Source: Minisyncoccota bacterium (GTDB lineage Bacteria; Patescibacteriota; Minisyncoccia; Phycocordibacterales; UBA9973). From it: 64,000 nucleotides of DNA. The translations under genes were made by a program, and so were the position numbers. Below are positions 7,841 through 18,459 of this stretch, in pieces. The DNA is taken from NCBI GenBank assembly GCA_041663005.1, contig JBAZRK010000001.1:28976-92975 (forward strand), given 5' to 3'. Each line of letters begins with the position of its first letter. Position 1 is the first letter of the stretch. The notes under the pieces are model-generated. The model worked only from the letters and a program-made list of their open reading frames with translations. It made no database searches and was not told where the DNA came from.

Positions 7841-7881
7841 TGCTAAGATGTTAGAAGTTCTTTCAACAATTAAAAATACAT

Positions 7882-7953
7882 TCCGGGGTAGCTCAGCGGT
7901 AGAGCGGTCGCCTGTTAAGCGATTGGTCGTAGGTTCGATCCCTACCCCCGGAG
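7882..7953 (+). tRNA. tRNA-Asn (anticodon GUU)
   Basis: UCCGGGGUAGCUCAGCGGUAGAGCGGUCGCCUGUUAAGCGAUUGGUCGUAGGUUCGAUCCCUACCCCCGGAG: acceptor UCCGGGG/CCCCGGA, anticodon loop CUGUUAA, T-loop UUCGAUC, discriminator G; 3' end overlapped by the stop region of the recombinase ORF. Confidence 0.85.
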
Positions 7954-9426
7954 CCCAATAGGTTGGTTAGAAGTTGCAAGTATCTTGTCAAAGGGAGAAC
8001 GCATTGAAAACACTAGGTTTTTTCCTTCTAACTGACAGTTCTGAAGTAGAAAATTAAGAAGTTGCCTTTTTTCAGGCACTTCAGAACTCTTGAAAATCTC
8101 AAGGGCCCTTTTTGCTATGTTTAGTATTGTATTTGCAATCAAATAAAACTCTTCATCTGCTTCAGAGTGGATGCTCATATCAGTCAAAATAGCACTTTGT
8201 CTTTCTTTGAACTCTTTCAATTTCTTGTCATACATTTCATCTGTAATACGACCATCTAATTTGTCGTCATACATTTTACTTATGCGGTCCTCAATTTGAT
8301 CGTATTCTTTCTTTAGGTTTGTCATATGGAACTTATGAAAACTAGCTTCACTTTTGCCCATAGAGCGTAATCCTTCAGTTATCTCTCTGATACGCTCATC
8401 AGGCATTTCTAAGCCCTCTAGGACCTTATAAACGGGCTTTAGAAGCACATTCTCAGGCACATAGTCCCGTTTACATTCCTTACGATAATTAGTGCAACTA
8501 TAGTAAATATAGGTCTTGCCGTTCTTCTTAACTTTGATTTCAGGGCTTATACCGCAACCACATTTTGAACACTTAATAAGCCCTCTAAAAATGAATGGCT
8601 TAGCTGAGTATTGAAAAGGTTTCTTATTGTAGCTCAATCTAACATCTTGGCATTTATCAAAAAGGTCCTTGCTGATGATTGGTTTATATTTATGAGTGTT
8701 GGTTTTCCCTTTATAAAGCATAACGCCATAATAGAAAGGATTTTGTAGTATATGAGCAATCATACTAACTGAAAGCATTTTTCCATTTGAACTTTTAAGC
8801 CCATATTCAAAAATCAGCTTTCTTAATTGATGATGAGAGCTGTTGCCAGTTGCATATACTTCAAACATTTTCTTGATTAGTGGTGCATCGTGTTCGTCTA
8901 ATTCTATATCTTGTTTATCTTCAATGTTCGTAAAGTTTCTGTATCCTCTAGGTGCTTTTCCTGACCATTCGTGATTATCAAACTTCTGCCAAATACTACG
9001 CTTTACATCATCAGAAAGTCGGTTTAGATATTGTTTAGCTAAGAATACTTTAGCTTCCCACATAAACATTTGATTACCTGTAGCATCTTTGTTTATGAAG
9101 AAACCGTCTTTTACGAAATGGATTTCAAGCCCTTCATTTTTACGCATCTCGTCAAGGTCCACAGCATCCTTGAAGTTTCTAGTTGCTCGGTCCACATTTT
9201 CACAGAGTAAAACCTTTATATTATTTTTTCTAATATGTTCAAGAACTTCTTCAAACTTTCTGCGGATTTTTGGACCAGCACTTTCAGAGAAGCAAAACTC
9301 TTTTTCTATTTCAAAATCTCTTTTGATTGCATATTTCCGTAAACTATCAATTTGAGCAGGGAGTGAGTGTCCTGTTTCTTCTTGCTCTTTAGTTGATACT
9401 CTTGCGAGAACTACAGCTTTTATCAT
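7942..9426 (-). CDS. large serine recombinase (resolvase/invertase catalytic domain + recombinase domain + Zn-ribbon)
   Basis: 494 aa; N-terminal VVLARVSTKEQ catalytic-Ser motif; C-terminal CSKCGCG...YYSCTNY zinc ribbon and coiled-coil tail typical of phiC31-type integrases. Confidence 0.85.
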   Translation of the reverse strand: MIKAVVLARVSTKEQEETGHSLPAQIDSLRKYAIKRDFEIEKEFCFSESAGPKIRRKFEEVLEHIRKNNIKVLLCENVDRATRNFKDAVDLDEMRKNEGLEIHFVKDGFFINKDATGNQMFMWEAKVFLAKQYLNRLSDDVKRSIWQKFDNHEWSGKAPRGYRNFTNIEDKQDIELDEHDAPLIKKMFEVYATGNSSHHQLRKLIFEYGLKSSNGKMLSVSMIAHILQNPFYYGVMLYKGKTNTHKYKPIISKDLFDKCQDVRLSYNKKPFQYSAKPFIFRGLIKCSKCGCGISPEIKVKKNGKTYIYYSCTNYRKECKRDYVPENVLLKPVYKVLEGLEMPDERIREITEGLRSMGKSEASFHKFHMTNLKKEYDQIEDRISKMYDDKLDGRITDEMYDKKLKEFKERQSAILTDMSIHSEADEEFYLIANTILNIAKRALEIFKSSEVPEKRQLLNFLLQNCQLEGKNLVFSMRSPFDKILATSNQPIGLRG

Positions 9427-10763
9427 AGGTCAAATAAATTAGTTTCAAAATCTTTTCTTGCTTCTTCTTTTTGTAATTCAATCTTTCTTTTTATGTCGCT
9501 TATCTCTTCTCTTAAAGAGATTATTTTATTTACTATTTTTTCTTGAGTTTTTATATCAGGAAGTGGAATTGGGAAGCTAAGATATTCTTGACCATTTATG
9601 TTGGGCTGTCCAGATACTCTTTGTTTAGAGTTTATCCATAACTTAAAAGGTTTTGTTTTTGAGTAGAAAAATATAAAATCAGAATTAGCGATTTTAGGGT
9701 TTATTCTATACCTAACTAAATATCCAGCATAGATACATTTACCAAAATGATTTTTATATAAAAATGTTTTTCCAACAGTATTACCTGATCTAGCTATAAG
9801 AAGGTCGTTATCCTCTAAAAGATACTGTTTATCAAACTTTTCGCTTGAAACAATTTCATCATTAAGTGAACCGTCTTCATTTATATCTGTAATTCTTACA
9901 TACCTTGTATCTGTTATTTTATCCGATGCTCTTGAGTTAGAGCCATATTTAGGTTTATCTAAAAGAGTAGTTCCAAAACTAACAATATCAAACTTTGATG
10001 ATTTCATTATTTCTTTTTTATTCCAAAAATCCCATCTATCTAATTCTTTGAAATTAGTAAGATAAAATCTTTTATTTTTTAGTTTTTCTTCAATACTTAT
10101 TCCCAATTCCTCTGATAGATAATCTTCAATTTTTTCATTAAGTTCATCTACTTTCTGTTCTAATTTTCTTACTTGAACTAATTCTTTATCATACTTGGCT
10201 ACTAGAGATTTTTGAGTAGGTATAGACGGAAGGGGTATTTCTATATTACTAAGCAGGTCAAAAGATAGGTTTTGTCTAACTGAACCCTTCGTTGATTTCT
10301 TTACTAGATGATTGAAAGTATTTGTTTTGAATAGTCGGAAGAAGAAATCATTATCTAGTTTGTCTTCTAGGCAACTAAATACAACATAAGCATTACTTAT
10401 ATACTCATATTTTTGATTTTCAGTTTTGATACCAACAGAGCCAACATTTACACGATATGGATTATAGGCAATCCAGTTTGTTTTCATTATCTTGTATGGC
10501 TGGTTTATTTTTGAACCTTTCTCTAGGTAAGCATCAAATACGCCTGTCTTGTTATTTACTCCCAAAATACCAAACTCTTGATCTGGAAAATCTTTCAGTT
10601 TTACTTTCTCTGTCTGTTCGTTTAAGACCAAGCTGAGTTTTACAAAGTCATACTTTGATTTAAGGTTATTGGTAGCATAACTTTTTACATCCCAGTTTAG
10701 CCAATTACTAAAAGACACAGTTTGAAGGTATTTGTATTCAGTTTTTTCTTTTACTGATGACAT
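9423..10763 (-). CDS. hsdS: type I restriction-modification specificity subunit
   Basis: 446 aa; two target-recognition halves separated and followed by conserved coiled-coil repeats (TQKSLVAKYDKELVQVRKLEQKVDELNEKIEDYL... and TQEKIVNKIISLREEISDIKRKIELQKEEARK); 4-nt overlap with recombinase start. Confidence 0.8.
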   Translation of the reverse strand: MSSVKEKTEYKYLQTVSFSNWLNWDVKSYATNNLKSKYDFVKLSLVLNEQTEKVKLKDFPDQEFGILGVNNKTGVFDAYLEKGSKINQPYKIMKTNWIAYNPYRVNVGSVGIKTENQKYEYISNAYVVFSCLEDKLDNDFFFRLFKTNTFNHLVKKSTKGSVRQNLSFDLLSNIEIPLPSIPTQKSLVAKYDKELVQVRKLEQKVDELNEKIEDYLSEELGISIEEKLKNKRFYLTNFKELDRWDFWNKKEIMKSSKFDIVSFGTTLLDKPKYGSNSRASDKITDTRYVRITDINEDGSLNDEIVSSEKFDKQYLLEDNDLLIARSGNTVGKTFLYKNHFGKCIYAGYLVRYRINPKIANSDFIFFYSKTKPFKLWINSKQRVSGQPNINGQEYLSFPIPLPDIKTQEKIVNKIISLREEISDIKRKIELQKEEARKDFETNLFDL

Positions 10764-10764
10764 A

Positions 10765-12888
10765 TTACTTTGTTTTTTTATACTTACGATATTCTTTTAC
10801 AACATCAATAAGCTCATTTTCACACTTTTCGCCTGTAGTTGTAATACCAGCTTTTTCAACTTCAGCTATTGGGATTTGGTAATCAAACTTTGTTTTGATT
10901 TCTTGTTTGATTTCATTATCAATCGTGCTGTTTAGAGTATTAAGTTCTTTTTTCTTTGTCTTTTTTACTTCGCCTTTTAGGTCCTTAACTTCTTTTTCCA
11001 ATTTCTCTAATTCTTTTTGGTATTTTGCTCTAATAGAGTTATTAGCTTCTTCTTTTATCTTTTCATACTTTTTACTTTCTGCATCAGTAAACTTTTGTAA
11101 GAATACCAAGCTTGGTTTTACTGTAGCCCCACTAGCTATAAATACATCTTGAGGAATAGAAACGATAAGATCTATTTTCGCTCTACCTTCAAAGTATTCA
11201 CGGACCTTTTGCAAGTTAGGATTATTCAAAAATCCTTCAGGTAATACAACTGCCATTTTTCCGCCTTTCTTAAGTATTCTTAAGTAGCGTTCCATAAATA
11301 GAACTTCGGTAAGTGTTGAGAAGTTTCCAGTTTCGTATGTATCAATAAGATTTTTACCTATATTCCTCTCTAGGTTTCTAATTGCTTCTAAACCTTCTTC
11401 GCCAAATCTCTTTTGAATATAACTTTCTTTTCCTGCATATTTATTATCATTTTCAGTTATTTTTTGGTCCTTATTTACTCTTGAGCCAAAGGGTGGGTTA
11501 GTAAGAACTATGTCAAAGCGATTTTCAAATATACCTCCAACATCTAGTAAGCCGTCATTATGATGAACTCCTCCGTGTCCATCGCCGTGCATAATCATAT
11601 TCATTTTACTTGTTCTAGCCATTCTAGGGTTAGCATCAGAACCATAAATACATTTATGAGAAAGGTCATACAATCTTGAACCTTCGGTTTGATTATCTAA
11701 TTCTTTGTTTAGCTTTTTGAACTCTGTTTCAACAACTGCATCAATTTTTTCCTTTTCGGTATCATTTGATTTTTGATACTTTTCATCAAAGTATTTTTTC
11801 TTTATTTCTTCTTTTTTATTTAGAATATCATCTTCAATCTTTTCTCTTACATAATCAAACGCCTTAATAAGAAATCCTCCTGAGCCACAACAAGGGTCGC
11901 AAATCAGATCGCCTTCCTTTGGGTCCACAATATCAATCATAAAATCAACTATGGTTCTTGGTGTAAAGAATTGACCAAGTTCACCTCTAAAGGTTTTACC
12001 TAAGAATTGTTCAAAAGCTATACCTTTTACATCATCACCAGTATCAGAAAGGTTGTATCTTTCAAGTTCTTTCACTATTTGCTCAAAGCTATTTTCACGG
12101 ATTTTGATTTCTTCATTAGCTTCAAAGAGTTCATCTTTCTCAAAATCTTCTTTTGTCTTTTCAAATAGGACCTGATAGAAAGGTTTTGAGTTCTTAGATG
12201 CTGTTTCATCATATCCTTTTTTAAGTTCGTTGAAACGACTTATTGAGAATACCTTCTTTCCTTGCTGTCTTTCATATCTAATTTTTATAAACAAGATTTT
12301 ACTTATCTCATCAAAAGCACCTTCAGGGGATAGTTTGTCATTATTTCTAATTATATTGTGGCACTTGAAAAGTAGTTTTGAAAACTCATCTCTAGTAAAT
12401 ACTTTTGTTTCTTCAGCTAATTCTTTGAGCTTTTCTTCATCATTTACATCACTTGCTTTCGGTATGTTTACAATTTCATTCAAATCAACAGGGAGCTTAT
12501 TCTCAAGCATTTGAAAATACTTTGTTTCTGCATTGTTGTGAGTTATGAAAAACTTGGCTCTAGCCCAAGAAGCATAGTTATTACCTTGATAGTAATCTTC
12601 AGGGTGTATAACGACATTGTCTGACTTACATTCAACTACAATGAAAGCATTTGTTTTACTTAGTTTTTCTTCTTTTGATTTCCAAATTACAATATCCGCT
12701 CTTGATTTTCCTTGTCCTCTTTGGCTGTTATTTACTTGAAGTTCTTCATCCATTTGCTCAAGTGAATATCCGTAATCATTTACAAGTGTGCAAATATAAT
12801 TTTGTCGGACCTCTTCTTCAGGGGTATAAGAAAGCCACTTGTTTCTTAGAGGAGAGAATATCTTATTGTTTTCCATTTGTATTTTCAT
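10765..12888 (-). CDS. hsdM: type I RM N6-adenine DNA methyltransferase subunit with extra N-terminal HsdR-N/Mrr-like domain
   Basis: 707 aa; motif I DPCCGSGGFL, motif IV LTNPPFG; N-terminal ~130 aa (RADIVIWKS...NAFIVVECKSDN) matches HsdR N-terminal (PD-(D/E)xK-like) module pattern. Confidence 0.85.
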   Translation of the reverse strand: MKIQMENNKIFSPLRNKWLSYTPEEEVRQNYICTLVNDYGYSLEQMDEELQVNNSQRGQGKSRADIVIWKSKEEKLSKTNAFIVVECKSDNVVIHPEDYYQGNNYASWARAKFFITHNNAETKYFQMLENKLPVDLNEIVNIPKASDVNDEEKLKELAEETKVFTRDEFSKLLFKCHNIIRNNDKLSPEGAFDEISKILFIKIRYERQQGKKVFSISRFNELKKGYDETASKNSKPFYQVLFEKTKEDFEKDELFEANEEIKIRENSFEQIVKELERYNLSDTGDDVKGIAFEQFLGKTFRGELGQFFTPRTIVDFMIDIVDPKEGDLICDPCCGSGGFLIKAFDYVREKIEDDILNKKEEIKKKYFDEKYQKSNDTEKEKIDAVVETEFKKLNKELDNQTEGSRLYDLSHKCIYGSDANPRMARTSKMNMIMHGDGHGGVHHNDGLLDVGGIFENRFDIVLTNPPFGSRVNKDQKITENDNKYAGKESYIQKRFGEEGLEAIRNLERNIGKNLIDTYETGNFSTLTEVLFMERYLRILKKGGKMAVVLPEGFLNNPNLQKVREYFEGRAKIDLIVSIPQDVFIASGATVKPSLVFLQKFTDAESKKYEKIKEEANNSIRAKYQKELEKLEKEVKDLKGEVKKTKKKELNTLNSTIDNEIKQEIKTKFDYQIPIAEVEKAGITTTGEKCENELIDVVKEYRKYKKTK

Positions 12889-12896
12889 AATAGTTT

Positions 12897-13088
12897 TTAT
12901 TGTGTGCTTGTTTTCTTTAAGAATGCTTCAAAGTCCGACCTATCTATACGAAACTCTTTTCCTATCTTATGTGCCTTGAGTTTCTTTTTGTCTATGTAGC
13001 GATAAATTGTCATTATGTTTAGCCCCAATTTATCTGCTAAATCTTTGGCGGTGTAGAAATCTTTTTCTTTCATATGTTTTTTATTCAT
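12897..13088 (-). CDS. excisionase-family helix-turn-helix DNA-binding protein
   Basis: 63 aa; YTAKDLADKLGLNIMTIYRYIDKKKLKAHKIGKEFRIDRSDFEAFL matches excisionase/MerR-type HTH pattern (..LS..T.YR.I..G.L.A.K.G...RI...D...F). Confidence 0.65.
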   Translation of the reverse strand: MNKKHMKEKDFYTAKDLADKLGLNIMTIYRYIDKKKLKAHKIGKEFRIDRSDFEAFLKKTSTQ

Positions 13089-13106
13089 AGTTATATTTAT
13101 AATACT

Positions 13107-14243
13107 TTACTTTTCTTTACAAGGCAAATCTTGAAGAGTGGATAAACGGAATGGTTCAAAGTCCTTTAAGCTATGCTCTATTTGCCTTACCCAAGCGTGG
13201 TATGTTTTACCTGAAATATCATCAAGAAACTTCAAATCTTCTGCTATACGATACCAAGTCCGAGTTGTAGCGTATCTTTCAATAATGGATCTAGTATCTC
13301 TTATACCTTCCTTGCTAAGAGCCCTAAGTCCTACTAAGTAAATTGCATCTACTGGCTTTATTTTCGGCTTATTTTTGAAGATAGTATCTAGCGTTTTCTT
13401 TGGATTACTTTCTACATCAAACAAGAATAAGTTTTTACCTGTTATTAGTTCGGTCCAGTAATTGAGAAGTATTTTTTGACAAAGTTCTTTATTGAAAACC
13501 TCCTTAAAGGTTGGTTTTTCCTTGAACCCTAAACTTTTTAGAGTGGCATTCATTTTTACTTTTTTTGCAAGTCTAACTTCTATTCGTAATACTTCTTTTT
13601 TATCTTTTTTAATTAAGGTATCAAACAAGGAAAGTTGGACCGAGTTTTGGTCTTTATCCATTGCTCTTTTGTCTGGTTTTTTAAGGTCCTGAACTTTGTC
13701 ATAAACAACAAGCGAGTGTGAGTTCGTATAGAACTGAAGAGAGTGTCCGCTATTTCTGAAACTATCACGATTAAGGTCCATTTTCTTACTAACATCAATC
13801 TTGTGTAGTTCAGTAATAACAAAACTTGAAGTATAACCTTCTGTTAGTTCTATGTTTTTGGAGGGGTGGAAAGCAGATACTTTCGCATTTCTCAAATCTT
13901 CGTGAGATACGCCAACTAACATATCAAGCATTGCTTCGTGTAGAGCAGATATAACTTTTTCAAAGTCCTTTTCTTCAACTTCATCAACATTGTTTCCGTA
14001 TAGCATTTTGGCTACAGAGAACTCTATCTTCAGCGGTATTTCATCGCCGTTTCTTGTCATTCTTTTCATTAGGGTTAGGCGTGGCTTGTAAGTTCCTTGT
14101 TTTTTATCTGTAGCGGTTGGATTGTTTACGCATTTCACTAAGTAATTTCCTGACATCTTAAGAATGTTCGCATTCGGTGTAAATGCTTCAGGTCTGAGCT
14201 TATAGGATCCTCTAGGGATTGTTAGGATTACTGTATCTAGCAT
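13107..14243 (-). CDS. uncharacterised island protein, possibly a replication-initiation (Rep_trans/CRI-like) protein
   Basis: 378 aa; N-terminal MLDTVILTIPRGSYKL resembles start of rolling-circle/phage replication initiator families; no other recognisable motifs; assignment tentative. Confidence 0.35.
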   Translation of the reverse strand: MLDTVILTIPRGSYKLRPEAFTPNANILKMSGNYLVKCVNNPTATDKKQGTYKPRLTLMKRMTRNGDEIPLKIEFSVAKMLYGNNVDEVEEKDFEKVISALHEAMLDMLVGVSHEDLRNAKVSAFHPSKNIELTEGYTSSFVITELHKIDVSKKMDLNRDSFRNSGHSLQFYTNSHSLVVYDKVQDLKKPDKRAMDKDQNSVQLSLFDTLIKKDKKEVLRIEVRLAKKVKMNATLKSLGFKEKPTFKEVFNKELCQKILLNYWTELITGKNLFLFDVESNPKKTLDTIFKNKPKIKPVDAIYLVGLRALSKEGIRDTRSIIERYATTRTWYRIAEDLKFLDDISGKTYHAWVRQIEHSLKDFEPFRLSTLQDLPCKEK

Positions 14244-14446
14244 ATTTTTCTTTTACATATAAATGCGGATTTACTCTTTTATCAACCTTAAGAAGCAAGG
14301 CAAAAAAACCTAATACATTGTCTTGCTCTGTTTCGCTAAGTTCTTTTAACGACCAGTCCGTATTCAATTTTTCTTTGTTTTCTTCGGACATAAAAAAACC
14401 TATAAGGTTATGCTTATAGATTATTCTTATGCTTGTTTACAAAAGT

Positions 14447-16042
14447 TTATAAACTTTTGCGGACCTTTATATATTTTGGATTTATGGATATTGTCTTAGT
14501 TGTTATTTCAAGAAAATCCTTAATAGTAGTTTCTTGGGCTATGGTCCTATTTACTGCTTTTCCTGCTTGATAAGCTTTGTTTTTCTTTATCTTTTCGCCA
14601 AAAGAGTAGCCCCAATCTTCTTGTATTTCATCATTAGCCCAAGTTTTAGAAACATCTTTGAATAAGGTTCTCATTAGTTTATGCGGATCGCTTTCTTCTT
14701 TTTTGGCAATAAGTATTTCTTTTCCTGCAAAAATAAGTTTACGGTTTTTATCATCAAAAATAGGATTTTTATCAATCTTAATTTCTTTGACTGGTTCGGT
14801 TGTTTTTCTCTTATTACTTAATCTTACTTTGAAAAGATAACCTCTATCATATAAATCAAATAAATGTTTAGGACCATATGAAAAATCTTCAATAGTAAGA
14901 TAACCTTCTCTTTCTAAGGAAAGCATAGCGTGAACAAACAAAAACAAATCCTTTATTTTGTCTTTATCGTTCAATGGGACCAGTTTTACAGTGTTGTCTG
15001 TATAGTCGCCAATATACTCAGGTTCAAAGAATGGGTGTCCTATTTCTAGGTCATTTCTTTGATACTCTTCATATTTTCCTTCAATATGTTTTACAAGCAT
15101 ATCCCTTTGTTTTTTGAAGCCAAAAAATTGAGTATGCAAAGGCGTTGAAAGTCCTTTAGAAAAGAAAGTTCCAGTTAGTCCTTTTTTACTAGTTCCGTCT
15201 AATTCATCTCTTTCAAAAGAGGTTATATATTTATCTAAAAACGCTTCTAGTTTCGTGGTGTTTTTTATAGCCAATCCAAACTCAGCGTATTCAAAAATAA
15301 GTTTTGCTAATCTTGTTTGAGTATCTTCATAAAATGCTGTTTTTTCTGTAAGAGCATTTATTTTGAATTGTTCTTTGTTGTGCCTGAAATATATACTTAA
15401 AAACCCTTCAGCTTCTTTCGTGGTCCATTTACTGCCGTCATACTCAGTAATAAGTTTGTTTATTATTTCAATAAAATCTTTATCAGATTTTTTATTAAGA
15501 ATTGCTTCTTGATATTCTCTTACTGGGGGATTAGCTAATTTTGTAAATAACACTTGATCGTCTATGTTGTTTTTTCTTTTTCTACTTATCAATTCATCTA
15601 GGAATTGTTTTTGCTCTTTTGTTAGATATTTTAAGATTTCCTTATCTTTAGGGTTTTCTAAGTAATCATTCATTGAACCTCTAACATCATCGGTAAGAAA
15701 TCCTCCTTCAACCAAGCTATAATCAGCATTCGCATATACAATAAAACCTTTTTCATCAAGAAGTTTTCCTATCTCTAAAAGATAACGCAAGACAAAAGGA
15801 GAACCCATAAGAGAATCTATTCTCTTCATTGATTGCTCATATGAATTACTTATATCTTCTTCTAGTGTAGCAATTTCACTAGGTTGTTTTGGGATCTGTA
15901 TAGGCGTAAACTTTTGGTTGGGTGTAAATAATCCGCTATTATCAGTAGATATTCTTTTATATCTAAAAAGCCAATACAAAATAAGAAGCTCTTTTTCATC
16001 TAAGTATTTTTTGTCCTTATTTTCTATATCTAAGGGGTTCAT
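14447..16042 (-). CDS. hypothetical protein (531 aa), no recognisable domain
   Basis: Long uninterrupted ORF, AT-rich island codon usage, first gene of the co-oriented island operon; no Walker, nuclease or MTase motifs seen by eye. Confidence 0.55.
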   Translation of the reverse strand: MNPLDIENKDKKYLDEKELLILYWLFRYKRISTDNSGLFTPNQKFTPIQIPKQPSEIATLEEDISNSYEQSMKRIDSLMGSPFVLRYLLEIGKLLDEKGFIVYANADYSLVEGGFLTDDVRGSMNDYLENPKDKEILKYLTKEQKQFLDELISRKRKNNIDDQVLFTKLANPPVREYQEAILNKKSDKDFIEIINKLITEYDGSKWTTKEAEGFLSIYFRHNKEQFKINALTEKTAFYEDTQTRLAKLIFEYAEFGLAIKNTTKLEAFLDKYITSFERDELDGTSKKGLTGTFFSKGLSTPLHTQFFGFKKQRDMLVKHIEGKYEEYQRNDLEIGHPFFEPEYIGDYTDNTVKLVPLNDKDKIKDLFLFVHAMLSLEREGYLTIEDFSYGPKHLFDLYDRGYLFKVRLSNKRKTTEPVKEIKIDKNPIFDDKNRKLIFAGKEILIAKKEESDPHKLMRTLFKDVSKTWANDEIQEDWGYSFGEKIKKNKAYQAGKAVNRTIAQETTIKDFLEITTKTISINPKYIKVRKSL

Positions 16043-16083
16043 ATATACTTTACTTTACTTTACTTTTAGATATAATTCAATAG

Positions 16084-16871
16084 TGGAAAATCAAAAATAC
16101 AGATTATACATAGATGAGTCGGGCACTCATAAATACAGTAATTCTACTGACATCAAAGAACGCTATTTGTGTTTATTAGGGGTGATAATTTCTTCTGAGC
16201 ACAATCAAAACTTTATTTCTCCAAAATGGGAAGAGTTAAGAAATATATTTACACAAGATGCTGATTTTCCGCCTGTCTTTCATTATGTAGATGTTGTAAG
16301 TGGGAATAATGGGTTTGGAAAACTATCTGAACAAAATACCAGAGAAACATTTAATCAAAAGTATTTAGAACTCTTAAAAGATGGCGAATATACCATTTGT
16401 TGTGTTGTATTAGATAAAAAAACACATATTGAAACATATAATACCTCAGCTATGCATCCGTATCATTATTGCCTAAATGTTCTCTTGGAAAGATATGTAA
16501 GGTTTTTATCAAGTAAAAATGCAAGTGGTGATGTTTTAGCTGAAGCCAGAGGAAAAAAAGAAGATAATTTACTTCGTTCAGAGTTTGAGAGATTTTATGA
16601 ACACGGAACATCTTTTCTGGAAGCTGATATTGTAAAAAAGCGATTGACGAGCCATAAGCTAAAACTCAAAACTAAGGAAGCTAAAATTGCTGGTTTAGAA
16701 ATTGCAGATATGTTGGCTACGCCAATGAAGTATCTGACACTTAAAAAATATAAGAAAATAGATGCTCTGAGTGATAATTTTACAAAAACTGTATTAGATA
16801 CTGTTTTCTCTAAAGTTCGTAAAAGTCCCTTTACTGGTTCTACTCAAGGTTATGGGATCAAGCTAATATAA
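16084..16871 (+). CDS. DUF3800 family protein
   Basis: Probable GTG start at 16084 just after TATAAT (16070-16075); N-terminal YRLYIDESGT motif characteristic of DUF3800; annotated ORF extension to 15918 overlaps divergent gene and is rejected. Confidence 0.5.
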
Positions 16872-17151: not shown

Positions 17152-18459
17152 TTAGTTTACCAAGACCCTTTTCTCCATTTCATCAAAATTGTAGTTCGCA
17201 GGAAAGTGTTTTAGAAAAAGCTCGATCGCCGGTTCGCCTGCATATTCTTTACTCTCTGCTGCATAATGCATTGCGAGAATCATCTCTTCCGGTTCACCGA
17301 CACAGTCCAGTGGTTTAAACCCTTCGATGCCTAGGATGCGGCGAAAGAGTGGTAGCAAACGCAAGTTTTCATAAAGGTTGGCCCCGAAGATACTGACCAC
17401 TTCTTTTTTTGGGAGATATGCCGAAAAGCAGGCAAAGAGGAATACACATTTAGGACACCGTTTGCACCAGTATGCCCGACGCCGTAGAAGCTGCTCCGGG
17501 CGCGAAAGCCAAAAATAGTTATTGCAGCTGGTAACGTGGTGGAGATACTGCGGATACTGCACGAAGCGACGCACAATTTCTAGCTCGCTGTACTTTCGCA
17601 AAAGCGATTTTGTGGAAATGTCGGGTGTTATGTAGCGTTGTATGTAATCATTAACCATTTTTTCTGCCTCGGATGATTTACACCATTGATGATTAACTTC
17701 AAGTCCGCGGTAGGTGAGATTGCCGAAATCAGCGCTTCGTTCGTTTGAGAATACGATGGAATTGTAGCCTAGAAGTTCAGCTAGTAACGCAGCAACGAAG
17801 CTGAAAGTTGAAACTGACGGATAGGCGTTAGAAATTCCAAAAATGGACATTATAAAGTCGCTGGATGAATCGCGGCGGCGAGTTACGGTAATTGTTTTCG
17901 CGCCCACGAGCGCGCCAATGCGCTTGTGTGCTGGGGTTGGAGCAAAAGCGAAAAAGTCGAACGGTGCACCTGACCCCTTCAACATTTCAGCGGAGAGGAT
18001 AGAATCTTTGCCTGCGCCATTTAGAAGAAGAGCTCTCGCTGGCCGGGGGAAACGCGCGGGCGTAGGCGCAGGAAGAGATTCATCATAGGGGAAGGAGATA
18101 ACATTATGAAAATCCATCTTCATATCGTAGAAGAATTCTCCGAGTCCATTCAAATATAGCGAGTCCCAGAAATGGGCTTGCTCACGCGTTAACGTAAAGT
18201 CCTGAATGCGGATGTTCCTCGTCGGGAAGAGGCACCAGTAGTTAATACCGAGCATTAGGAGAAGCGCCTGAAGCGTAGGCTCGAGAACTTCCTTCGGAAC
18301 ATTGCCCCATGATTCCGGAGGGATGTCCTTGAGTATAAGCTTATCGGTAAAAGTTTTCGTAATCCCAAATTTAAATTGTACTTTGTAGGTAAAGGTGATG
18401 ATTGAACTAGTAGGGTCCACTTTATATGTGCCGAAAGTAAAAGATGACGGATGCAACAT
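17152..18459 (-). CDS. PP-loop (adenine nucleotide alpha-hydrolase) superfamily ATPase with C-terminal CxxC Zn-ribbon-like motifs; function unknown
   Basis: 435 aa; LLLNGAGKDS resembles SGGxDS PP-loop; WCKRCPKC plus additional Cys; GC-rich relative to neighbouring island. Confidence 0.6.
   Translation of the reverse strand: MLHPSSFTFGTYKVDPTSSIITFTYKVQFKFGITKTFTDKLILKDIPPESWGNVPKEVLEPTLQALLLMLGINYWCLFPTRNIRIQDFTLTREQAHFWDSLYLNGLGEFFYDMKMDFHNVISFPYDESLPAPTPARFPRPARALLLNGAGKDSILSAEMLKGSGAPFDFFAFAPTPAHKRIGALVGAKTITVTRRRDSSSDFIMSIFGISNAYPSVSTFSFVAALLAELLGYNSIVFSNERSADFGNLTYRGLEVNHQWCKSSEAEKMVNDYIQRYITPDISTKSLLRKYSELEIVRRFVQYPQYLHHVTSCNNYFWLSRPEQLLRRRAYWCKRCPKCVFLFACFSAYLPKKEVVSIFGANLYENLRLLPLFRRILGIEGFKPLDCVGEPEEMILAMHYAAESKEYAGEPAIELFLKHFPANYNFDEMEKRVLVN

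Follow-up and report, generated by a model that had tools for sequence, protein, structure and literature searches.

How a restriction-modification locus might restrict DNA when it encodes relatives of the Type I methyltransferase (HsdM) and specificity (HsdS) subunits, and no HsdR beside them, is the question raised by a gene pair within a 64-kb stretch of a Paceibacterota (CPR) genome (hereafter the window, meaning the whole of the DNA analysed). The preliminary description labelled the pair a Type I module without R, and envisaged either a methylation-only orphan, or restriction supplied in a non-canonical way, through a domain fused to the methylase or an uncharacterised partner in the same genomic island. 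That label now appears to be a misclassification, as the 707 aa RM subunit and the 446 aa S subunit probably constitute a restriction-modification enzyme without a motor, of the BcgI/BsaXI kind (Type IIB, or "multimeric Type IIG"). The combination of an RM fusion with an HsdS-like subunit is the established Type IIB, or BcgI-like "motor-less Type I", design (PMC3874165, PMC6158711, PMC11997821). The fused domain proves the best-supported of the original options, through its conserved residues and homology to BsaXI, although it is not non-canonical, and the pair most likely belongs to an already-known enzyme design rather than a new one.

A nuclease and a methyltransferase on one chain

Both genes were recovered as ORFs on the reverse strand, with Pfam and PADLOC matches that bear out their description as hsdS and a 707 aa hsdM. 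The RM subunit gene (10765..12888; annotated "N-6 DNA methylase" or hsdM) encodes a chain in which Pfam, PADLOC, profile and fold matches identify, in order, a nuclease, a connector, a gamma-class m6A methyltransferase and a C-terminal helical hairpin. The N-terminal PD-(D/E)xK nuclease domain (residues 1-150; 12439..12888) corresponds to Pfam HSDR_N_2, which matches residues 23-143 above its cutoff (E 5.8e-23), upholding the resemblance to the HsdR N-terminus previously noted in a region that includes RADIVIWKS (residues 63-71) and NAFIVVECKSDN (residues 80-91). The connector that follows (residues 151-285; 12034..12438) is all-helical in the AF2 model, and aligns with EcoKI M residues 8-195 and with BsaXI from residue 209 onward; judged by this alignment, it is the predicted equivalent of the HsdM N-terminal helical domain, or of the BsaXI multi-helical connector.

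The gamma-class N6-adenine methyltransferase domain (residues 286-601; 11086..12033) matches Pfam N6_Mtase (E 2.4e-33). Its motif I, DPCCGSGGFL (11869-11898, residues 331-340), precedes motif IV, NPPF (11488-11499, residues 464-467), as expected of the gamma class and on the same polypeptide as the nuclease, and both are unchanged in 80 of 80 genome homologues. The chain also has a long, antiparallel, K/E-rich helical hairpin (residues 602-668; 10885..11085), modelled by AF2 as helices at residues 602-636 and 640-668 with a pLDDT of about 85-92. The profile stretch spanning residues 529-669 matches BsaXI 550-694, with the hairpin falling where the BsaXI "knob" region begins; the hairpin is a probable S-binding or DNA-proximal element.

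The specificity subunit gene, hsdS (9423..10763), begins 1 nt past the RM stop codon. Its product has two target-recognition domains (TRDs) and two helical conserved regions, with Pfam Methylase_S matched in two stretches, PADLOC Specificity_I (PDLC03148) at 316 bits, and EcoKI S over residues 139-426 (E 1.2e-10). The M subunit is likewise matched over its full length by PADLOC MTase_I (PDLC03018, 1101 bits), a model labelled "Type I methyltransferase", and it also shows homology to StySJI M (E 1.7e-28).

The nuclease residues are intact and conserved

When a profile of 20 diverse N-domains was searched against all 177,635 PDB sequences, the one match at E<1 was to RM.BsaXI, in its N-terminal REase domain (E 4.3e-4). 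In this alignment E49, D65, E86 and K88 of the window protein correspond to BsaXI E73, D90, E105 and K107 respectively, and mutagenesis has found BsaXI cleavage to depend on each of these (PMC11997821). The putative catalytic core, assigned from the translation, the BsaXI alignment and conservation, therefore reads E25...E49...D65...E86-C-K88...Q101-xxx-Y105 (12574..12816, reverse strand), and retains the QxxxY motif of HsdR-type nucleases, which is shared with RecB (PMC2475608). The PD-(D/E)xK fold is also supported by a structure prediction made anew for the N-domain, separately from the full-length model. The domain is thus a homologue of the BsaXI nuclease, with its catalytic residues, the loss of which would have spoken against a restriction function, in place.

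This bears directly on the suggestion that the pair is a methylation-only orphan M2S, acting as an epigenetic or anti-restriction module, with an N-terminal domain that is catalytically silent or serves DNA binding or regulation. Such a function would fit the PADLOC and REBASE-derived models and the NCBI annotation, which name the family as methyltransferase only, and the absence of any PADLOC match to a REase model in the island. However, E49, D65, E86, K88, Q101 and Y105 are invariant among the 80 genome homologues, as is E25 in 79, the remaining sequence having a gap. Furthermore, among 90 diverse relatives, each representing a 50%-identity cluster, E25 and D65 are present in all, E86 and K88 in 87, Q101 in 86 and Y105 in 85. 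The N-domain is less conserved overall than the methyltransferase segments (mean identity of 57% versus 66-84% among the genome homologues), yet this is not the level expected of a dead domain, and the homologous domain of BsaXI is an active nuclease. The strength with which the nuclease residues are conserved therefore makes a dead domain, and with it an orphan methylase, unlikely.

In the motor-less Type IIB enzyme that we favour instead, the subunits would assemble, probably as (RM)2S, with the two TRDs of S reading a bipartite sequence. The methyltransferase on each RM subunit would protect host sites, while the PD-(D/E)xK nuclease on each (E49, D65 and E86-x-K88, plus E25 and Q101xxxY105) would cut unmodified DNA near the site, presumably on both sides. 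There would be no ATP-driven translocation, and so no need for HsdR, and the fusion of the nuclease to the methylase would likewise make a separate HsdR superfluous.

The gene pair is cargo of a mobile element

The pair is the cargo of a small integrative element at tRNA-Asn, with an HTH_17 gene on one side and the gene of a large serine recombinase on the other. The island has a GC content of 31-33%, compared with roughly 42-46% in its flanks. Both the island and the downstream side of the cargo slot end with the recombinase gene (7942..9426, reverse strand), the start of which overlaps the S stop codon by 4 nt (ATGA). Its 3' end is overlapped by 16 nt by that of the integration target, the tRNA-Asn(GTT) gene (7881..7957, forward strand), an arrangement that is identical in three related elements (L004, L092 and L093). 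A search of the island for att direct repeats gave none beyond chance expectation, and the tRNA-Asn 3' end is not duplicated; the lack of such repeats is consistent with a serine recombinase. The right-hand border is somewhere about 16.05-17.15 kb.

On its upstream side the cargo slot is bounded by the HTH_17 gene (12897..13088, reverse strand), which ends 8 nt before the RM gene starts and encodes a 63 aa excisionase/MerR-type protein that matches PADLOC mad1 (E 1.7e-12). It is a backbone gene, with 52-84% identity to its counterparts in elements carrying different cargo (L004 and L092-L096). That it is conserved alongside other cargo led us to reject a role as a C-protein-like RM controller, and makes an excisionase or element regulator more likely.

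The reverse strand also carries a 378 aa Rep-like backbone protein (13107..14243) with a weak PHROG replication-protein match, the L004 analogue of which weakly matches Phage_CRI; a conserved backbone ORF of 59 aa that precedes the Rep-like gene (14212..14391); and a CPR-restricted backbone protein of 531 aa and unknown function (14447..16042). The 531 aa and 378 aa proteins had no Pfam, PADLOC, NCBIfam or PDB matches. The proposal that an uncharacterised island partner supplies the missing nuclease could nevertheless be discarded, as homologue searches and the surrounding contexts identified both as backbone genes found with quite different, unrelated cargo in relatives, rather than as partners of the RM pair. 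The 531 aa protein, Rep-like protein, HTH_17 protein and serine recombinase together characterise a family of CPR integrative elements that carries different RM cargo in the same slot. As cargo, the M/S pair would contribute to host defence and/or stabilisation of the element, and it may plausibly serve the mobile element in a stabilising or defensive capacity.

A widespread family with variable neighbours

The family combining an HSDR_N_2-methylase with S is very large: clustering at 90% identity leaves at least 8000 groups, and the GTDB species representatives that have it number at least 479. A search of a plasmid collection returned 10 matches, all annotated "N-6 DNA methylase", and some relatives have S fused onto the same chain in an R-M-S arrangement (P0204 and P0208). 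S follows M in 66 of the 80 genome loci. In Bacteroidota, S is directly followed in 43 of 66 related loci by genes for a PtuA/mad3-like ATPase and for a small nuclease, PtuB or PDC-S14, such that the pair could often work with helpers. At least 30 of 77 Bacteroidota loci also have a small XRE-type HTH gene ahead of the RM gene, and it is for these alone that a small HTH protein may be read as an RM controller.

These neighbourhoods raise the possibility that the window pair is a fragment or minimal variant of a MADS-like or Septu-coupled system, in which the RM-like subunit mainly marks self DNA, and other proteins, such as an ATPase and HNH or TOPRIM nucleases, are the effectors. The best NCBIfam match of the M protein is indeed MAD2 (NF047738), in an alignment starting at residue 6, indicating that MAD2 has the same N-domain, and S matches PADLOC mad5, just as the upstream HTH_17 protein matches mad1. 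However, the MAD2 match scores 289.9 bits, far under the 720-bit cutoff, while the window contains no MAD3, MAD4 or MAD6-8, and the HTH_17 gene belongs to the element backbone rather than the cargo. No ATPase gene neighbours the M-S pair in the window, nor in the small-genome contexts L004, L087 and L089. We therefore consider this explanation improbable for the window, although MAD2 offers a counterpoint: it has the HSDR_N_2 fusion, yet MADS defence requires six further genes, and hence the fusion is no guarantee of self-sufficient restriction. With regard to the family as a whole, we tentatively suggest, at slightly less than even confidence, that it is an uncharacterised clade whose members restrict DNA unaided and without a motor, but are scored by annotation pipelines and defence finders as orphan "Type I methylases", and that it forms an evolutionary continuum with MADS and the four-gene Septu-coupled cassettes of Bacteroidota.

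No conserved HsdR accompanies the pair

The reported lack of HsdR held throughout the window, as a survey of the ORFs in the 64 kb found no HsdR or SF2 helicase, the largest encoding DnaE, a P-type ATPase, GH130, GlmS and similar proteins. When the island proteins were searched with PADLOC models, the M and S models were matched, and no island protein outside the pair had a match except for that of HTH_17 to mad1. When the 80 genome loci were viewed with flanks of 10 kb on either side, the sole recurrent protein of at least 600 aa was the PtuA-like ATPase. With this family excluded, 54 non-redundant flanking ORFs of at least 640 aa remained, taking one per similarity group; two contained SF2 helicase domains, and neither came from a recurrent family. 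Nine further contexts likewise lacked a conserved HsdR, and hence no conserved HsdR neighbour was present across approximately 90 related loci from many phyla.

A classical Type I system, with an HsdR motor encoded elsewhere in the genome that docks onto the M2S core, is accordingly the least credible explanation and can be regarded as very improbable, for although M and S are plainly akin to Type I subunits through their StySJI M and EcoKI S matches, no HsdR is present in the window or conserved at these loci, the pair moves as self-contained cargo of a roughly 8-kb mobile element, and the nuclease on M would duplicate that of HsdR.

The motor-less Type IIB assignment instead accommodates each of these features. 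Firstly, the N-terminal nuclease has intact residues. Secondly, it shares its chain with a gamma-class methyltransferase. Thirdly, the partner is an S subunit with two TRDs. Fourthly, there is no HsdR/Res translocase in the window or the related loci, and the pair has homology to a characterised member, BsaXI.

Implications for defence in small genomes

The puzzle of the missing HsdR most likely dissolves, with the system probably being complete as it is. Two-gene restriction systems are probably under-counted, especially in Bacteroidota and small CPR genomes, because the architecture is annotated just as an "N-6 DNA methylase", and PADLOC-type models report a Type I methyltransferase. Small CPR genomes may gain from a compact system with no ATP-dependent motor subunit, and the exchangeable RM cargo slot in a family of CPR integrative elements helps us to understand how genes move, and how defence works, in bacteria that have received little study.

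Comparison with known systems

The eight-gene MADS system of P. aeruginosa (mad1-8) includes the same nuclease-methyltransferase fusion (MAD2), an S subunit (MAD5) and a small HTH protein (MAD1), whereas the window lacks mad3, mad4 and mad6-8, and its HTH protein is that of the mobile element. MAD6, MAD7 and MAD8, which are mandatory in the authors' MADS model (bioRxiv 10.1101/2023.03.30.534895), had no PADLOC match among the other island proteins.

Classical Type I systems, such as EcoKI and EcoR124I, have M and S subunits homologous to the window pair, and the N-terminus of their HsdR shares the fold and motifs of the nuclease domain, QxxxY included. The window pair differs in being without an HsdR motor alongside hsdM and hsdS, and in bearing the nuclease domain on M. 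BcgI, the archetypal Type IIB enzyme (A2B1), is by description of similar design: its A subunit combines nuclease and methyltransferase, its B subunit is a Type I-like specificity subunit, and it has no ATP-dependent motor. The BcgI B subunit is about 340 aa, shorter than the 446 aa S of the window, which is Type-I-sized.

The likeness to BsaXI (RM.BsaXI and S.BsaXI; PDB 8w0p, PMC11997821) extends across the whole design. It too is encoded by two genes, with an RM chain comprising an N-terminal PD-(D/E)xK nuclease, helical connector, gamma-class m6A methyltransferase and C-terminal helical elaboration, an HsdS-like subunit with two TRDs, and four catalytic residues that align. The whole-chain profile matches RM.BsaXI strongly (E 1.4e-26), and Foldseek ranks it first among PDB folds for the full protein (E 1.3e-12; the best-placed Type I HsdM reaches 4e-6). 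The full-length AF2 model used in this comparison is a poor one (pLDDT 68, pTM 0.38, from a 14-sequence alignment, with a low-confidence methyltransferase core), giving low TM-scores over the whole chain (0.31), and it served for ranking PDB matches alone. The two proteins nevertheless differ in that their identity is only about 19%, and the 916 aa of RM.BsaXI include a complete "knob" and a long "paddle", in contrast to the 707 aa and single helical hairpin of the window protein.

The same two-gene layout occurs on another mobile replicon, plasmid D of Anabaena (Trichormus) variabilis (NC_021575.1), where HsdRM and HsdS are annotated as "N-6 DNA methylase" and "restriction endonuclease subunit S". 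This HsdRM has 917 aa, with approximately 70 extra N-terminal residues, a longer C-terminal coiled-coil region and 25% identity to the window protein. Their homology spans residues 22-630 of the latter (BLASTP E 7e-42), with the N-domain matched by hhalign at a probability of 97.7% (E 2.5e-12). Genetic evidence indicates that this pair bars incoming DNA: in vivo, the plasmid D hsdRM and hsdS genes alone lower conjugation (bioRxiv 10.1101/2025.10.21.683720).

A restriction-modification pair in an exchangeable cargo slot

The genes for the 446-aa S subunit (hsdS, 9423-10763) and the 707-aa RM subunit ("hsdM", 10765-12888) lie 1 nt apart on the minus strand, inside an island of 31-33% GC with flanks of roughly 42-46%. 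ORFs, Pfam and PADLOC bear out the preliminary description of this pair: the S subunit has two stretches of Methylase_S (Pfam) and matches Specificity_I with 316 bits (PADLOC), and the RM subunit combines N6_Mtase (E = 2.4e-33) with HSDR_N_2 at residues 23-143 (E = 5.8e-23), confirming its proposed HsdR-N-like start, and matches MTase_I model PDLC03018 end to end with 1101 bits. A Candidatus Paceibacterota MAG encodes an identical copy of the 707-aa protein.

The pair is the cargo of an integrative element (7881-16042) with relatives in CPR bacteria (Parcubacteria/Paceibacterota; loci L092, L093/L094, L095/L096 and L004), sharing a backbone of a 531-aa protein (14447-16042, minus strand), an ORF of about 50 aa, a Rep-like protein of about 380 aa (13107-14243, minus strand), HTH_17 and, beyond the cargo, a large serine recombinase (7942-9426, minus strand). 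Homologue searches with the 531-aa protein returned CPR hypothetical proteins only. What occupies the cargo slot is exchangeable, with RM-like systems that vary from element to element: the window has the RM and S genes, L092 a 155-aa protein, L093 an Eco57I/TaqI_C-type methylase and a 245-aa protein, and L095 a PLD-SNF2 helicase and an MmeI-like methylase. As the cargo differs on a common backbone, the other island genes are ruled out as restriction partners, and the earlier suggestion of an uncharacterised island partner supplying restriction falls away. The same argument identifies HTH_17, which PADLOC matched to mad1 of the methylation-associated defence system (MADS), as an element gene rather than a MADS component; no PADLOC model matched the remaining island proteins.

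Genes are tightly packed from the Rep-like one through to the recombinase, with gaps of 18, 8 and 1 nt followed by a 4-nt overlap. Each of the four elements inspected has a recombinase ORF whose 3' end overlaps that of a convergent tRNA gene by 13-36 nt (window, 7942-7957, tRNA-Asn; L004, 14982-15017, tRNA-Gln; L092, 12346-12358, tRNA-Ser; L093, 14751-14765, tRNA-Asn); the crossover site thus appears to fall within both genes. A search for long att repeats found none.

At the GC transition, a DUF3800 protein (15918-16871; Pfam E = 6e-10) is encoded on the opposite, plus strand; it probably starts near 16.1 kb, since the Pfam match begins at residue 63, and is not conserved in related elements. 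Just beyond the island, this CPR genome encodes a MurL-like enzyme of 435 aa (17152-18459, minus strand), whose NCBIfam MurL (UDP-MurNAc-L-Ala-L-Glu epimerase) score of 234 bits is below the 700-bit cutoff.

The N-terminal nuclease domain

The RM subunit contains the motif series E25, E49, D65, E86-C-K88 and Q101-GNN-Y105; the RecB/HsdR-type nuclease signature is PD-(D/E)xK followed by QxxxY (PMC2475608). When residues 1-164 were compared with a set of 1.84 billion cluster representatives, 903 matches reached E ≤ 1e-3, and 90 domain-covering representatives retain E25 (90/90), D65 (90/90), E86 (87/90), K88 (87/90), Q101 (86/90) and Y105 (85/90). All seven nuclease residues are invariant, bar one gap at E25, in 80 homologues taken from genomes (overall identity 55-84%), and so are methyltransferase motifs I and IV. 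When a profile of 20 diverse N-terminal domains was compared with every PDB sequence, the single match at E < 1 was the N-terminal REase domain of the Type IIB enzyme RM.BsaXI (8w0p_A residues 43-127, E = 4.3e-4). Hence the catalytic residues whose absence would have spoken against a nuclease are present: E49, D65, E86 and K88 align with BsaXI E73, D90, E105 and K107, alanine substitution of each of which abolishes cleavage (PMC11997821). Modelled alone, the domain has an alpha-beta-beta-beta-alpha-beta core (pLDDT 91, pTM 0.87). The module is conserved and appears to be an active nuclease.

Proteins of 360-570 aa that lack a methylase or any other Pfam domain (P0142, P0183, P0185, P0190 and P0206) carry a close relative of this domain C-terminally, and an 877-aa TPR protein (P0160) carries one N-terminally; all of these are possibly stand-alone nucleases built on the module.

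Architecture of the whole chain

The 707-aa chain comprises the nuclease (residues 1-150), a helical connector (151-285), a gamma-class methyltransferase with motif I preceding motif IV (286-601) and a long helical hairpin (602-668), the same order of parts as the R-H-M layout of BsaXI/BcgI-like enzymes. In relatives P0204 and P0208, HSDR_N_2, N6_Mtase and Methylase_S are fused on one chain. Profile searches placed the BsaXI RM subunit (E = 1.4e-26) about level with StySJI M (E = 1.7e-28), the top-scoring HsdM of a Type I system. BsaXI, with its three entries, supplied the top three PDB fold matches of the full-length model, itself only moderately confident (pLDDT 68), at E about 1e-12 over about 860 aligned columns; the best HsdM followed at E = 4e-6. 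Overall, the chain is more like the RM subunit of a Type IIB enzyme than the HsdM of a Type I system.

A functional precedent is hsdRM with hsdS from Anabaena variabilis plasmid D, which strongly reduced conjugation when moved into other strains (2025 preprint, bioRxiv 10.1101/2025.10.21.683720). This HsdRM is homologous to the 707-aa protein across residues 22-630 (E = 7e-42), and its N-terminal domain matches the N-domain profile with 97.7% probability, sharing the PEE..RQ, AD, VECK and QxxxY motifs. The preprint locates its PD...(D/E)XK motif at residues 444-452 (gene at 60-2813 of locus L091), which fall between methyltransferase motifs I and IV; our alignment instead places the nuclease motifs (PEE..RQ, AADV, VECK, QLKSY) N-terminally, at about residues 90-165.

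Probable function and alternative explanations

The pair is probably a self-sufficient Type IIB-like enzyme, a prediction tempered by the PADLOC label, the similarity to MAD2 and the Bacteroidota neighbours. A methylation-only system is unlikely given the conserved catalytic residues, albeit PADLOC/REBASE-derived models label PDLC03018-type proteins as Type I methyltransferases.

Little weight attaches to a MADS-like dependence on further genes. The best NCBIfam match of the 707-aa protein is MAD2 (290 bits; cutoff 720), which carries the same nuclease-methyltransferase fusion, yet defence by MADS requires six other genes (bioRxiv 10.1101/2023.03.30.534895). Related loci (within L007-L085), most of them from Bacteroidota, could also point to helper dependence: in 43 of 66, RM and S are directly followed by an ATPase of roughly 565 aa whose C-terminal part is TOPRIM-like (PADLOC: PtuA 125 bits, mad3 84 bits), after which the commonest gene encodes a PtuB-type HNH nuclease or PDC-S14 (DUF4357); examples lie at L035 14990-16690, L047 15070-15750 and L019 15336-16163. 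A small XRE-type HTH is found upstream of RM and S in at least 30 of 77 loci. The arrangement looks like a recurrent cassette of 4-5 genes in which a Septu-like module is linked to a motor-less RM. However, neither the ATPase nor PtuB/PDC-S14 occurs in the window or in several other small-genome contexts.

A remote HsdR likewise receives small weight, as comparative evidence from related loci makes it unlikely that this genome has a canonical hsdR at another site. As first described, the 64-kb window encodes no HsdR-like protein, its largest ORFs being DnaE, P-type ATPase, GH130, GlmS and similar. The first three contexts inspected, one from Bacteroidaceae, one from Empedobacter and one from an element closely related to that in the window, had M then S and no helicase, and three further contexts of closer homologues followed the same pattern, with no HsdR. 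Scanning one genome per GTDB species found relatives in at least 479 species; S was directly downstream of M in 66 of the 80 loci kept, with flanks of up to 10 kb. The sole recurrent flanking protein of at least 600 aa was the PtuA-like ATPase family, other large ORFs being singletons or present in two to three loci. Among 54 non-redundant flanking ORFs of at least 640 aa (one per similarity group, PtuA-like family left out), DEAD/Helicase_C/ResIII occurred in only two, neither from a recurrent family, and the 25 most frequent Pfam families included none specific to HsdR.

Relationship to known systems

The aspects most deserving attention are the size of the HSDR_N_2-methylase and S family, which is systematically annotated as mere methylase, its gradation into MADS/Septu-linked cassettes, and the exchangeable RM slot carried by CPR elements. 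Restriction by the fused N-terminal domain is the best supported of the branches originally proposed, through its conserved catalytic residues and BsaXI homology, but it is not "non-canonical", since the class is established. Reviews (PMC3874165, PMC6158711) portray BcgI-like enzymes, with their 2RM:1S composition, as Type I systems that are "trimmed-down" or "motor-less", and BsaXI assembles as (RM)2S (PMC11997821). Hence the pair, in matching this established class, would be a further member of an already known type.
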